This document shows, one piece after another, positions 16,393 to 32,000 of a DNA stretch of 32,000 bases. The position numbers and the translations under genes were made by a program. The stretch lies in NCBI GenBank assembly GCA_048938295.1, contig JBHLMI010000021.1, positions 14,864-46,863 of the forward strand, given 5' to 3'. The notes below the pieces were generated by a model. That model was not told where the DNA came from. It was given only the letters and a program-made list of their open reading frames with translations, and ran no database searches. This stretch comes from Promethearchaeota archaeon (lineage in GTDB: Archaea > Asgardarchaeota > Hermodarchaeia > Hermodarchaeales > Hermodarchaeaceae). Numbering within the stretch: the stretch's first letter is position 1; the number at the start of each line of letters is the position of its first letter.

Positions 16393-18780
16393 TCAGACGA
16401 GGTCTTCAGAGAGCGTGATTGGAATCGGAAGATTACAGGATGGACAGCGCCCCTCCCGTGTTAGTCGTACAGAAAGTGTACGTACACCTAATCGTTCGAT
16501 GAGGAGCGCGCCACAGTTCGGACATATGGTATTGGCCCCTTGATGCCCGGGAACATTACCTAAATAGACGTATTTGAGACCTGCACGCGATGAGAGTTCT
16601 GCAGCGGTTTCAAGTTTCTTAATGGAGGTGGGTGGGAGATTACTCATCTTGTAATGGGGATAAAACCGTAAGAGATGGAGTGGCGTATCTTCGCCGAGTT
16701 CCTTAACGATCCATTGGGCTAGTTTTTCCGCTTCTTTAGTGTCATCGCCGACATCGGATACGAGGAGGTTAGTGATTTCGATATGAATGTCTGCAGCCTT
16801 CATCGCTTTGAGCGAATCAAAAATAGGCTCTACTTTGGGAACATGACAATATGTTTTGTAAAAAGCAGGATTGGCATTACCCTTGAAATCAACAGTGGCC
16901 GCGTCAAGGTAAGGGGCAATGGTGTCAATGGCATCGGTGGTCATGTAACCGTTAGTGACAAAAGTATTGAACAGCCCCTTTGCGTGGGCTATCTTTGCGG
17001 TATCATAGGCGTATTCAAAGAAAATGGTCGGCTCCGTATATGTATAAGATATGCCTGTGCAGCCGGTTTCCAACGCATACTCAACAATTTTCTCAGGAGA
17101 CATTTTACGCCCTACAATATCACGCTCATGGCTAATTTGCCAATTTTGACAGTTTCCGACTCCAATGAAATTAGCAAGGTAAGAGTGTTCACCTTCCACT
17201 TCCATATTGTAGACCGGTCCAGAGTATTGTTTTTTGGTTATTGTTTTTACTGGAAGAAGCCAGAAATCCTTAGTGTTTCTAAAGGCAACTGCTTTATCAG
17301 GATCTGGGTTCTTCCTGGTTCCACCCATCAACTCTCTACCAAATGTGTTTGTATTTACTTTTACATAGTATATTGTAGATTGGTTGATCATTCTTCCTTC
17401 GATTTCTTTCTGTTCGGGAGGTTTCCATTCGTACCACCCCGGTAAATAACCAAGTTTGAGGAGAAGAAAGTAGATACCAATCGAAAGTTTTTTTGAAACA
17501 GTGTTTATCGCAATATTGTTACCTGTTTCAGTTCCATCCCCTTTTAGATAGGCTCTTAGAAATGATAATACGATGTTTTTCGATGATGAGTATACCAAAT
17601 CAGGTACTTTCTTGGTTTTTGCACTACTTCCACAGAGTTGCTTGAATAAAACGCCAAGAGAGCTTTTTGTGACTTCAACCGCTATTGTAGTCCTTCTTTT
17701 TATTACTGCGATTGTAGCATCAAATATTTTTTTGAGAAGAGTGGCTGTTCGTTCCACCAATGCTTTCTCTTCGTGTCCATAACTGAAACTCACCCGGAAC
17801 GAATTAGGGCGGTTTCTATCCTTAGAAACACATCCTTCTGCAACATAGTATCCCAGAAGCTCAGCCAGTTCTTCGTTCATGGACACGCAGGCAGGTATCC
17901 ATCCCTTCTCACTTCGGAACTTCAAATAGCCTTCATTTTCTATTACATCATTTGGATAATAGAATGTCTTTTCTGTTATTCCATCGCTGCTTAGTTCCTT
18001 CATCAGTTTCCTCAAATAAGTGGGATGCATACCAATGATTTTCCCGATTTCACGTGAACTCAGACCAGTCTCCCGGAATTTCATAATTTCCTTAAGCTTC
18101 TTCTCATCCGTTTTTCGTGATTTCTTTATCCTCGATTTCCTTTTTTCGAGTATGGGAGCAATTTCGATTATTTCTTCCTTAGTTTCATTCGAGATCAGTT
18201 TGGGAACTATCAGTAGATCTCCAACCTGAATATTCCCTGCCTTCTTCTTTGTGATACCGCCATTCCACACATAAATTTCGTGTTCAGGTGTACACTCTAG
18301 AGGAGGAATATAAGCAGCGTTGAGTTCTATTAGTTCTCCCTCGTAATTGTGACGAAAGACCTTGCGAATACTTCTCTTCTGACCCGTTGCACTATTTGTG
18401 TATGTATTCTGTACAATTCGGATATTTTCGTGATGAGTTTTATCGGCTCTAGTGAACAATTCTCCAATCTTTTGGGGAATTCCATTACTAATTATCGTGG
18501 TTTCAGGATGGAAGCAAAAGTCACAGCGAAAATTGCAGCCGACGGTGGCTACAGACATGGCTAGTGCGCCTGGATGAAAGTGCCAGAGCGGCTTCTTTTC
18601 GATGGGGTCGGGGTTAGCCGAACACGCTTTTCCATAGACTAGCGAATAAAGGATGCCTTTCTCGTTTTTCCGGACTTGGCAGTATCCCAGTTTTCCGTCT
18701 GCTATTGTGCATCGGCGGCTGCACAGATAGCAGCCGACCTTGTTGTCTTCGAGTTTATTGTATAGCATCGCTTCATGCAT
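16393..18780 (-). CDS. AmmeMemoRadiSam system radical SAM enzyme, intein-containing (about 340 aa after splicing)
   Basis: N-terminal CYLCSRRC...GYCQVR and DPIEKKPLWHF. GCNFRCDF|CQNWQIS is restored after intein removal. YTYTEPTIFFEY, VTNG and C-terminal CPNC...CPSC follow. Confidence 0.92.
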   Translation of the reverse strand: MHEAMLYNKLEDNKVGCYLCSRRCTIADGKLGYCQVRKNEKGILYSLVYGKACSANPDPIEKKPLWHFHPGALAMSVATVGCNFRCDFCFHPETTIISNGIPQKIGELFTRADKTHHENIRIVQNTYTNSATGQKRSIRKVFRHNYEGELIELNAAYIPPLECTPEHEIYVWNGGITKKKAGNIQVGDLLIVPKLISNETKEEIIEIAPILEKRKSRIKKSRKTDEKKLKEIMKFRETGLSSREIGKIIGMHPTYLRKLMKELSSDGITEKTFYYPNDVIENEGYLKFRSEKGWIPACVSMNEELAELLGYYVAEGCVSKDRNRPNSFRVSFSYGHEEKALVERTATLLKKIFDATIAVIKRRTTIAVEVTKSSLGVLFKQLCGSSAKTKKVPDLVYSSSKNIVLSFLRAYLKGDGTETGNNIAINTVSKKLSIGIYFLLLKLGYLPGWYEWKPPEQKEIEGRMINQSTIYYVKVNTNTFGRELMGGTRKNPDPDKAVAFRNTKDFWLLPVKTITKKQYSGPVYNMEVEGEHSYLANFIGVGNCQNWQISHERDIVGRKMSPEKIVEYALETGCTGISYTYTEPTIFFEYAYDTAKIAHAKGLFNTFVTNGYMTTDAIDTIAPYLDAATVDFKGNANPAFYKTYCHVPKVEPIFDSLKAMKAADIHIEITNLLVSDVGDDTKEAEKLAQWIVKELGEDTPLHLLRFYPHYKMSNLPPTSIKKLETAAELSSRAGLKYVYLGNVPGHQGANTICPNCGALLIERLGVRTLSVRLTREGRCPSCNLPIPITLSEDLV
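17152..18516 (-). mobile_element. Intein (455 aa) with LAGLIDADG homing endonuclease
   Basis: Begins CFHPET and ends GVGN with C at +1. Blocks: B CTPEH, C LLGYYVAEG, E FLRAYLKGDG, F YSGPVYNMEV. Visibly more AT-rich than the exteins. Confidence 0.92.
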
Positions 18781-29629: not shown

Positions 29630-30081
29630 GCCACATTCAACAAGGATTGCTTGACGTGCTCTCACTAGCTTTAGTCAATATGAACACGTTGTTGTTTACG
29701 CCTTAATCTGTAGAAGAGATTAATTCCAGGGCAAATAGATTATTCGAGGAAGAAGACACAAACAGGATTCCGCGCCTTCTACTACATGGTCACACAGATT
29801 CTAGATTTCCTCAAGGGAAGTCTTAGTGAATTGAAAAACCGTCTTCTTCTATCATGAATCGATTCACCTCTCCAAGAATGTGAAAGACTCTACTAACAAA
29901 AAGTCTTGCTGAAAAAGAAAGTGGTGGTCGTATACCCCAAGGACAATATCGCTCCAGAACCAGTGCATATAGCTCCTTTCGAAACTAACACACTTAGGCG
30001 GTACGTGGCGGCCCGCTCAACACCTCGCCGAAGCTCGATGCGTACACGGCCGCTCGTTCAAACCGGTCTTCTACCGGAGCC

Positions 30082-30484: not shown

Positions 30485-31149
30485 TTAGGGTCCCAGGTCG
30501 GTGTTACTTGGTGAGGTATTGTTGTAATCGTTCGCGCTTCTCCGGGTGAGTTACCCCAGAAACTCGGTGGAGGAAGCGTGTGAGATTCTCGCGTCCTGTT
30601 ATGAACAATTGCCATACGGTTCTGTTGGGTGGCTTGTAATAGCCACAGTGAATTTTGTGGTGTTCGAGGATGTCGCCTGCAATTCGAAGCTTCTGGATGC
30701 TTTCATTGTAGATGCTGAATTGTGGTTGTCCTTCACTGTTTTGAGTGGCAGATCCTTCAGCGTCTGCAAGTCCTCGTAACCATGCCATTTGTAGTGTTGG
30801 TTTCCACATCCGAATGTCTTCGGGATGTTCATGGATTATTTGGATCTGTGATACTAGTTGTTTGTCCCACACCTGAATACGATGTTCAGGTCGGGTCTGA
30901 CGTGGTTTTACTTGGACTTCCTTATCTGGAAGCACATGTTCGAGTGCAGGCTTGATGATTTCGGTTAGCCATCGTTCCGATTTGGATTCGATGTCAAAGA
31001 CATATCCTTCTTTGCCACCCCGCCCGAGACGGGCGTCTTCGGATGCGCCTGCGAGATAGGCGATGGTATCATTGAGAACCATTGTATTCCAGAACTATCG
31101 TAGGCAATTGAGTATTTATTCGTCTCACTGTTCTCGTCCGGCCTGAGAA
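30485..31149 (-). mobile_element. Archaeal bulge-helix-bulge-type 23S rRNA intron (665 nt) between A2450 and A2451
   Basis: Sense 5' junction GGGG-UA^U-UCUCAGG and 3' junction CCUGGGA-CCCU-AA^A-CAG give a 4-bp helix, two 3-nt bulges and a 7-bp intron stem. Cleavage after the second bulge nucleotide restores GGGGUAACAG. Confidence 0.88.
30504..31082 (-). CDS. Intron-encoded double-motif LAGLIDADG homing endonuclease (192 aa)
   Basis: Motif 1 AYLAGASEDA and motif 2 AWLRGLADAEGS. It lies wholly inside the intron, on the same strand as the rRNA. Confidence 0.88.
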   Translation of the reverse strand: MVLNDTIAYLAGASEDARLGRGGKEGYVFDIESKSERWLTEIIKPALEHVLPDKEVQVKPRQTRPEHRIQVWDKQLVSQIQIIHEHPEDIRMWKPTLQMAWLRGLADAEGSATQNSEGQPQFSIYNESIQKLRIAGDILEHHKIHCGYYKPPNRTVWQLFITGRENLTRFLHRVSGVTHPEKRERLQQYLTK

Positions 31150-31663
31150 TACCCCTGGGGTAATTTTTCTGACGTGATCGACCCTCATCGGTAGGGTTCG
31201 ATCGTTCGCTAGGCCCTGCTTTCGCACCAGCGCTCGTTGCTTTTCGGAGCACTGTTAAGCCAGCTTTTACCCTTGCGCGCTACACGCGGTTTCTGTCCGC
31301 GTTGAGCTGACCTTTGGGCGCCCATGATATCTTTTCGTGGGCGTGCCGCCCCAGCCAAACTGCCCACCTGCTGGTGTTATGCACCGTTTGGTGCATTAAG
31401 AGTTGCAAACACTGAAGGCTGGTGTTCCATTGGCGACTCCACCACCCCCGCAAGGGTGGCTTCGACGTCTCCCAGCTACGCTCTGCATCAATGCCCGTAA
31501 CCCAGCAACAGGCTGCAGTAAAACTCCACAGGGTCTTCTCTTCCCTTTGGGTGTCCCTGGACTGTTCGCCAGGAGGTGGGTTCACCGGGCCGCAGGCGGG
31601 GACAGTGGGGACCTCATTGATCCATTCATGCGCGTCGGTACTTATCCGACAAGGCATTTGGCT

Positions 31664-31963
31664 CAGTTCTGTTACTTTCTTGAAAGCGAAGTGCCTTCAA
31701 TACTGACCTCGAATTCGAGGCGGGCATGCATTTCTGCACGCCTCCAATAGTCGCCTATTGGCTCGGACTATATCTTACTTCATTGCTGAAGTTCTGGCGT
31801 ATAGTCTCTGAGGATGTCTCTCCCATGGGAGAGATCTTTCCTGCTGATTGTCTCCACTTGTGTATTTTTAGGGGTCATTCCTCTGTCACCAGAGGAGTAT
31901 CCTAACACAAGATACGCGAGAGGTTCCAGCATATAGCCAGATTTTACTAAGGCAACTCTGTTC
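31664..31963 (-). ncRNA. Group I self-splicing intron (300 nt, no ORF) after U1931 of 23S rRNA
   Basis: Sense strand: 5' exon ends ...UAAGGU and pairs with IGS GCCUUAG (U.G at the splice site). Core elements are P AUGCUGGAA, Q AAUCAGCAGG, R UCAGAGACUAUA and S AAGAUAUAGUCC, with P3 UCUGGC/GCCAGA and terminal omega-G. Removal restores AAGGU|AGCCAAAUGCC. Confidence 0.95.
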
Positions 31964-32000
31964 ACCTTAAGAGAGTCATAGTTACTCCCGTCGTTTAACA

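Follow-up and report, generated by a model that had tools for sequence, protein, structure and literature searches.

The DNA analysed here, termed the window, is a stretch of 32,000 nt from a contig of an Asgard archaeon (G000:C20:14864-46863), and the window end coincides with the contig end. The minus strand carries a 23S rRNA gene that matches the archaeal large subunit (LSU) rRNA model RF02540 with 780 bits from position 29982 to the window end at 32000, where the 5′ side of the gene is cut off. Alignment to this model displays a 303-nt gap in the H69-H71 region, and the insertion at this place is 300 nt in length (31664-31963, minus strand). Read on the minus strand, the last bases of the 5′ exon are ...CUCUUAAGGU (to 31964) and the 3′ exon begins AGCCAAAU at 31663. 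In longer reads, the exon runs ...ACUAUGACUCUCUUAAGGU to 31964, the insert extends from G(31963) to ...AACAGAACUG (31664), and the exon is found again as AGCCAAAUGCCUUGUCGG from 31663; the insert closes with ACUG(31664). The last exon base is taken here to be E. coli U1931, counted from the landmarks H69 (1906-1924), U1939 and C1962. The 23S rRNA gene of a sister genus in the same family (G017:C67) has no intron and reads CTCTTAAGGT|AGCCAAAT straight through the same junction, and both boundaries are therefore fixed independently. A first-pass annotation had placed an L1931 insertion in an archaeal LSU rRNA gene at these positions, and the exon alignment and the intron-less allele prove it exact to the base. 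The intron sits in the only 23S rRNA gene assembled for the host genome. A 360-nt DNA contig from the sediment run that best represents the locus spans 31634-31993 and both junctions with 0 differences; this run may be the source sample and the contig is therefore not independent support, whereas a second metagenome-assembled genome (MAG), G006, is independent.

The insertion matches the Rfam group I intron model RF00028 (Intron_gpI) with 61.2 bits (E 2e-13; curated gathering cut-off 50). The match, at 31744-31993, covers the full model (1-253) and is the sole one in the genome. The 300 nt have a minimum free energy (MFE) fold of -105.8 kcal/mol vs -74.9 ± 5.1 for shuffled sequences (n=200; z = -6.05). 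Unguided, this fold draws P3, P4, P5-P5a-P5b-P5c, P6/P6a, P8, P9 and three 3′ hairpins (Table 1). P7 is a pseudoknot, G-[A]-GACUAUA with UAUAGUC-C, and has a bulged A. Four terminal loops are of the GNRA type, i.e. L8 (GCAA), L9 (GCGA), L9.1 (GAAA) and L5c (GUGA). The spacing between P1 and P3 is only 5 nt, so there is no P2, and that between P7 and P3′ is only 1 nt, so there is no P7.1 (nor P7.2). These two absences had been noted in the first-pass annotation together with P1 and its U.G pair, P3, P4, P6, P7 with the bulged A, P8 with its GCAA loop, P9 with its GCGA loop, the three 3′ hairpins and the omega-G, and all are found in the MFE fold or by inspection. The same annotation described the P5 extension as branched. 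The extension is present, but branching is rejected, as the MFE fold gives one linear arm in which P5 and P5a are followed by an A-rich bulge, P5b and P5c with the GUGA loop.

Table 1. Coordinates of the group I intron and its structural elements in the window
Feature	Position	Strand	Sequence, pairing partner and evidence
Whole group I intron	31664-31963	minus	300 nt after the base taken as E. coli 23S U1931; exon alignment to RF02540, intron-less allele, RF00028 61.2 bits
P1 5′ strand, UUAAGGU	31964-31970	minus	last 7 exon bases; pairs with GCCUUAG; U at 31964 (U1931) in U.G wobble with G11, 5′ splice site
Internal guide sequence GCCUUAG (P1 3′ strand)	31947-31953	minus	pairing with exon; falls inside the 25-nt search pattern
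P10 guide GUU	31954-31956	minus	pairs with AGC, first three 3′-exon bases (31661-31663); 3 bp; by inspection
P3 5′ strand, UCUGGC	31936-31941	minus	partner GCCAGA 31793-31798; 100% paired in 35 introns, 2 pairs compensatory
P4 5′ strand, UGCUGG	31926-31931	minus	partner UCAGCA 31842-31847; 100% paired, nearly invariant
P5 arm	31851-31921	minus	P5 31918-31921/31851-31854; P5a 31905-31911/31857-31863; A-rich bulge; MFE fold, P5 and P5a covary
P5 arm, outer part	31869-31904	minus	P5b 31901-31904/31869-31872, covaries; P5c 31890-31896/31879-31885, GUGA loop, MFE fold and same-genus copy
P6 + P6a hairpin	31812-31841	minus	P6 31839-31841/31812-31814; P6a 31828-31834/31817-31823; P6a 7/7 pairs compensatory
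P7 5′ strand	31800-31808	minus	G(31808), bulged A(31807), GACUAUA(31800-31806); pairs with 31765-31772; contains guanosine-binding G-C pair
J8/7 + P7 3′ strand, AAGA-UAUAGUC-C	31765-31776	minus	columns invariant or near-invariant; pseudoknot partner counts
P8 hairpin, ACUUCA-GCAA-UGAAGU	31777-31792	minus	6/6 pairs with compensatory changes
P9 hairpin, CCAAUAG-GCGA-CUAUUGG	31744-31761	minus	98% paired, 6/7 pairs compensatory, GCGA loop nearly invariant
Three peripheral 3′ hairpins	31680-31742	minus	P9.1 (GAAA loop) 31723-31742; P9.2 31707-31720; P9.3 31680-31700; MFE fold
Omega-G, final intron base	31664	minus	intron ends ...ACUG

The longest open reading frames (ORFs) of the intron, one of 61 aa on the minus strand and one of 59 aa on the plus strand, are without a Pfam match; a search of these ORFs against Pfam thus yielded no LAGLIDADG, GIY-YIG or His-Cys reading frame. 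The P6/P6a hairpin is at the position where relatives carry a LAGLIDADG ORF. Measured in the family between one and the same pair of core motifs on either side of P6, the span is 23 nt in the window, with no remnant of a reading frame, and 18-41 nt in most ORF-less members. The minimal P6 loop and the short ORFs agree with the earlier description of the intron as ORF-less. Among the matches listed, the family has three length classes: introns of 250-345 nt without an ORF, introns of about 680-776 nt, all but one of which have 417-505 nt across P6, and intermediates with 66-200 nt across P6 that resemble decayed ORFs. These classes are compatible with the cycle of gain and loss described for homing-endonuclease introns. 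They do not tell whether the ORF was lost or never present in the window intron, because its small clade holds both states.

Homologues were sought in GTDB species representatives with a 25-nt signature that comprises the guide sequence, J1/3, P3, J3/4 and the start of P4. More than 119 loci matched, and at least 86 complete L1931 introns, bounded by ...AAGGT and AGCN..., are among the matches listed. Invariance of the guide sequence across this set is by construction, because the guide is part of the search pattern. Among the matches listed, bacterial hosts are Acidobacteriota, Pseudomonadota, Dormibacterota, Patescibacteria and others, and archaeal hosts are Nitrososphaerota, Thermoplasmatota, Methanosarcinales, Woesearchaeota, Nanoarchaeota and Hermodarchaeota; the archaeal introns listed include 684-nt copies of Nitrosopumilaceae/Nitrosotalea as well as those of Woesearchaeota. 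The tail GUAACAGnnnUG is common to 10 of the 13 other archaeal introns in these matches that have G at the boundary, including a same-genus copy. An exact 49-nt core pattern gave no match in a search of genome contigs, the pattern being too specific. Matches to the junction pattern ATGASYCTCTTAAGGTB were mostly chance ones in bacterial and coding DNA, and 16 further archaeal L1931 introns were found with it, some ended by a contig edge.

In several bacterial members, the last intron base at the exon-inferred boundary is not G, e.g. ...GGATTA|AGCG. These are L215, L228, L250, L265, L273 and L321 (Dormibacterota) and L227 (a Coxiella endosymbiont). The true junction may lie two bases away, or these introns may be without a canonical omega-G. 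An intron of Coxiella burnetii has been reported to be without canonical omega-G (Raghavan et al., 2007, as cited in PMC11270868).

The 35 ORF-less introns of 250-345 nt among the 86 complete introns in the matches listed were aligned with MAFFT (alignment A2). RNAalifold assigns 52 consensus pairs to this alignment, 35 of which display compensatory double changes; these pairs are in P3, P4, P5, P5a, P5b, P6, P6a, P8 and P9. Canonical pairing on the window helices is 93-100% for P3, P4, P5, P5b, P6, P7, P8 and P9, vs mostly 11-69% in controls with the partner slid by 1 or 2 columns. The P7 pseudoknot, which is outside the reach of RNAalifold, shows 93% canonical pairing vs 22-37% in the shifted controls, and two of its pairs covary (U-A to C-G in 6 sequences; A-U to G-C or U-A in 7). 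The guanosine-binding pair G158-C198 is found in 35/35 introns and the bulged A157 is invariant. At 88 of the 90 columns that are conserved at ≥90% in the other 34 introns, the window has the consensus base. The two deviations are a compensated A-U flip in P9 and C148 in the P6a/P6 internal loop, a position that is A in 32 of the 34 relatives. Based on the pairing counts, the covariation and the conserved columns, the catalytic core therefore looks intact. P5c, P9.2 and P9.3 are lineage-specific and are backed only by the fold and the same-genus comparison; P9.3 is missing in most relatives in the alignment. By inspection, the segment 5′ of the guide tracks the 3′ exon (CGCU/AGCG in bacteria, CGUU/AGCG in Thermoplasmata, GUU/AGC(C) in the window), which is what P10 requires.

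A 322-nt copy of the intron is at the same site in a MAG of the same genus, Candidatus Hermodarchaeum yapensis (G006). The two copies are 86% identical over the full intron (BLAST), with a mean column identity of 89% when short exon flanks are included, and they differ mostly by loop insertions/deletions and compensatory stem changes. In the G006 copy, a C-G pair of P5c is U-A, four P9.1 pairs are changed, and P8 and P9.3 are longer yet paired. The pairing of P9.1 and P9.3 thus survives several changes and indels. The closest introns outside the genus, among the matches listed, are 63-65% identical.

A phylogeny had been proposed as a check in the first-pass annotation, and an unrooted maximum-likelihood tree was computed from 82 L1931 introns. 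The two Hermodarchaeum copies are joined with support 100/100, and a five-member clade (97/97) holds these two, a Woesearchaeota copy, a Nanoarchaeia copy and one labelled bacterial. The window intron groups with the archaeal copies, those of DPANN archaea being nearest outside the genus, and not with the bacterial ones. Archaeal copies form nearly one group, and two changes of domain label are needed. The sample, drawn from the matches listed with an exact 25-nt pattern required, is biased and the tree is unrooted, and therefore the direction of transfer is not readable from it. It may be speculated that DPANN archaea (Woesearchaeota or Nanoarchaeia), whose copies share a supported clade with the Hermodarchaeum intron, were the donors of the latter, but this is rather doubtful. 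If true, the intron would testify to gene flow, and to physical contact, between DPANN episymbionts and Asgard hosts.

Judged by its protein and rRNA relatives, the host is a Hermodarchaeum-like Asgard archaeon. The best relatives of a 795-aa protein, the gene for which is 11 kb away from the rRNA gene, come from Hermodarchaeota and Promethearchaeota MAGs and are 81-93% identical to it, and the 23S exons of the window are 97-98% identical to the 23S rRNA genes of two other Hermodarchaeaceae genomes. Concerning the protein itself (16393-18780, minus strand), the tblastn match in the five nearest relatives spans about 2,380 bases for two of them and about 1,015 for the other three (L010-L012), and all five matches cover query residues 1 to about 795. 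The spans suggest an insert of roughly 450 aa, perhaps an intein, in only some of the relatives.

A DNA search of 400 genomes revealed full-length homologues of the window intron in its own genome and in G006 only. This part of the 23S rRNA gene is assembled in only 3 of the 19 genomes of the family, and therefore absence within the family cannot be inferred or counted. RF00028 is matched at E ≤ 0.001 in 7 of 151 sampled Asgard genomes. In five of these genomes the match is above the cut-off, and four of the five are in archaeal 23S rRNA genes; the fifth (G140) had no rRNA model match. Other Asgard 23S rRNAs have introns at L1923, i.e. after U1923 in helix 69, 8 nt upstream (G006:C60, G197:C99 and G199:C98). 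The G006:C60 element (L094/L007; about 453-1150) is a group I intron of roughly 700 nt, with a P6 ORF whose translation is LAGLIDADG-like by eye, and this fragment has no L1931 intron. Fragment C17 of the same MAG has the L1931 intron and no L1923 intron, and the two fragments represent either two operons or two strains. Those of G197:C99 (L338) and G199:C98 (L340), from another Asgard family, are >850 nt and have the same P3-P4 and P7 motifs. The Asgard L1923 introns resemble the window intron in host phylum, gene and the P3-P4 and P7 core motifs, but differ in site and in their larger size, and have only short sequence stretches in common with it.

Two more Asgard 23S rRNAs have RF00028 matches of about 114 bits at different sites: L088 (G147:C242; 1501-1787) and L089 (G060:C46; 1501-1831, minus strand). 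One of these introns follows ...CCCGACUGUU (E. coli about 1770-1790) and the other is near ...AACGUGAGCU (about 2585). In the Asgard MAG G213, fragment C197 (L339/L332) is a 23S fragment whose exons are of bacterial type (CGTCCTAAGGTAGCGAATTTCCTTGTCGGGTAAGTTCCGACC), with a group I intron immediately upstream, and is probably a bin contamination.

A second insertion is found in the window 23S rRNA gene at 30485-31149 (minus strand), near E. coli 2450 and 500 nt downstream of the L1931 intron. It contains an ORF (30504-31082, minus strand) of 192 aa with a LAGLIDADG_3 match (Pfam E 3e-9). RF00028 has no match in this insertion, and a 4-bp helix compatible with a bulge-helix-bulge (BHB) structure fits its junctions; therefore a ribozyme intron and a protein-spliced intron are present in one gene. 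The 16S rRNA gene of the same genome, on fragment L003 (G000:C48), displays a 617-nt insertion (123-739) after ...GGAUUCAAC, at model position about 916 in the helix 31 region; it has a 182-aa ORF without a Pfam match, and no RF00028 match. Also in this 16S, about 33 nt lie between GCACACA and CCGCCCGUC in the decoding-site strand (1170-1202), possibly a mini-intron. The 16S 3′ end (1320-1360) is without the usual GGAUCACCUCC tail, and the helix 45 loop and the terminus read differently.

The steps proposed for excision of the L1931 intron are those of the standard group I pathway. The guide GCCUUAG would pair with the last seven exon bases to form P1 and thereby set U1931 in a U.G wobble. The attack on the 5′ splice site would come from an external guanosine that docks at G158-C198 of P7 beside the bulged A, and the final G of the intron would then occupy the guanosine pocket. 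The short P10 (GUU/AGC) may line up the 3′ exon, and joining of the exons would restore H69-H71 of the 23S rRNA; the ligated junction, if spliced, would be CUUAAGGU|AGCCAAAU. L9, L9.1, L5c and L8 probably brace the fold. The intron cannot home by itself, because it has no endonuclease gene. It may have spread by vertical inheritance within the genus, or it may have been mobilized by an endonuclease supplied in trans.

RNA data consist of Logan contigs from three metatranscriptome runs, none of which is from the source study; these were compared over 31300-32000, and the contigs pool many organisms. RNA depth is 0-24 in intron bins vs 1e4-1e5 in flanking exon bins, where exon depth sums many archaea. 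One run (X17) has a 125-nt intron contig with two differences and also a low-depth contig that is unspliced across the 5′ junction and is not attributable to the window genome; the latter is compatible with a precursor, and also with a retained intron. In X20, two contigs end in the exact ligated-exon sequence and are not assignable to the window organism. A joint 31663>31970, seen in both X17 and X20, was rejected as a splice product since it has ACCTAG where the window has ACCTTA, and therefore is from an intron-less relative.

The first-pass annotation of a complete, endonuclease-less group I intron at L1931 of an archaeal LSU rRNA is supported by RF00028, the covariation and the ORF search. 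Very probably, the element is an intact ribozyme intron of the widespread L1931 lineage, and it interrupts the only 23S rRNA gene assembled for this Hermodarchaeum-like Asgard archaeon. BHB introns cut by the tRNA splicing endonuclease are the usual rRNA introns of archaea and, with one of these 500 nt downstream in the same gene, the group I likeness might be thought incidental. However, no 4-bp central BHB helix can be placed at the 31664/31963 junctions, while the insertion at 30485-31149 passes the same test as a positive control of the same script; with the group I core backed by both a covariance model and covariation, a BHB identity is hardly credible. It is slightly less far-fetched, but still very improbable, that an intron-bearing rRNA piece of DPANN or bacterial origin was joined to the end of an Asgard contig during assembly or binning. 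The rRNA gene is indeed at the very contig end, the closest intron relatives outside the genus are from DPANN archaea among the matches listed, and one surveyed Asgard MAG (G213) does hold a bacterial-type 23S fragment. Nonetheless, the exons score as archaeal LSU rRNA and show the identity to two other Hermodarchaeaceae 23S genes given above; the 3′ end of the 23S is continuous with 30 kb of genes, of which the one protein tested has Hermodarchaeota/Promethearchaeota relatives; and an independent same-genus MAG has the same intron at the same site.

A more serious question concerns activity. The fold might be intact in appearance and not self-splice in the cell, such that the intron needs a maturase-like protein from the host or in trans, or stays in or fragments the rRNA. 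The unspliced X17 contig would fit this, as would the P10 helix of only 3 bp. At high temperature the L1931 intron of Thermotoga depends on the LAGLIDADG protein that it encodes (PMC3984707), and the window intron encodes none; that of Simkania is reported to stay unspliced (Everett et al., 1999, as cited in PMC11270868). On the other hand, the insertion site is in the H69-H71 inter-subunit bridge region, and 300 nt left in the rRNA at this place would probably do harm. The core of the intron has the consensus base at 88/90 columns, and compensatory changes between two species of the genus preserve its stems; both observations speak for selection on the fold. Moreover, ORF-less introns of ≤345 nt make up 35 of the 86 complete introns among the matches listed. 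On balance a loss of self-splicing is improbable, and an intact ribozyme is the preferred reading.

Group I introns of archaeal rRNA genes have been described by Nawrocki, Jones and Eddy (2018; PMC6125680), who report 39 of them. Fifteen are IB4 introns at LSU/1931, and several of these are ORF-less and 248-360 nt long; ORF-less examples are IB4.1 (281 nt, Thaumarchaeota), IB4.5 (311 nt, Woesearchaeota) and IB4.24 (248 nt, Micrarchaeota). The hosts are Thaumarchaeota, Woese-, Pace-, Micr-, Aenigm- and Nanohaloarchaeota and Euryarchaeota. A single candidate labelled Lokiarchaeota was set aside as bacterial, and no Asgard intron was accepted. The window intron resembles the archaeal IB4 introns at LSU/1931 in site, size class and lack of an ORF, and in its location in an archaeal 23S that also has a BHB intron. 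It differs in its Asgard host, the extra P9.3 and the long P5 arm, as compared by description. IB4.23 has the same length, 684 nt, as the Nitrosopumilaceae/Nitrosotalea introns among the matches listed here.

The bacterial and organellar L1931 introns, from Thermotoga, Simkania, Synechococcus C1/C9, green-algal organelles and Acanthamoeba mitochondria, are IC1-like with a complex P5 and no P2 (Haugen et al., 2007; PMC1995217). They are like the window intron in site, complex P5 region and absence of P2, but are 654-700 nt in length and encode single-motif LAGLIDADG endonucleases, whereas the window intron has 300 nt and a minimal P6 hairpin. The core signature of the window intron is common to many bacterial phyla among the matches listed; on the tree the window intron groups with archaeal copies. 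Position 1931 is also one of the sites at which insertions are frequent in CPR bacteria (Tsurumaki et al., 2024; PMC11270868). The subgroup 'IB-like' suggested in the first-pass annotation agrees with the IB4 typing of the archaeal LSU/1931 introns (PMC6125680), but the label is soft, because one study types such introns as IB4 and the other describes them as IC1-like without P2 (PMC1995217).

A full-text literature search found no description of a group I intron in Asgard archaea; Wu et al. (2022) mention only a homing-endonuclease homologue, which is not in an rRNA gene. ORF-less archaeal L1931 introns are already published (PMC6125680), and the novelty lies in the host clade and possibly in the link to DPANN copies. 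The 47-kb contig with Asgard protein genes provides a firmer context than would a short fragment of rRNA only. With 300 nt, the intron is predicted to be a compact natural ribozyme, and a close variant from the same genus is available for comparison; self-splicing could be tested. Current understanding of group I intron function is unchanged by it.

The presence of ribozyme and BHB introns in one Asgard 23S rRNA bears on a long-standing proposal, by which BHB introns took the place of group I introns in archaea, and co-occurrence of the two types has already been documented (Nawrocki et al., 2018; PMC6125680). The intron of the window extends the published group I introns of archaeal rRNA genes to the Asgard archaea. 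These are the closest prokaryotic relatives of eukaryotes.
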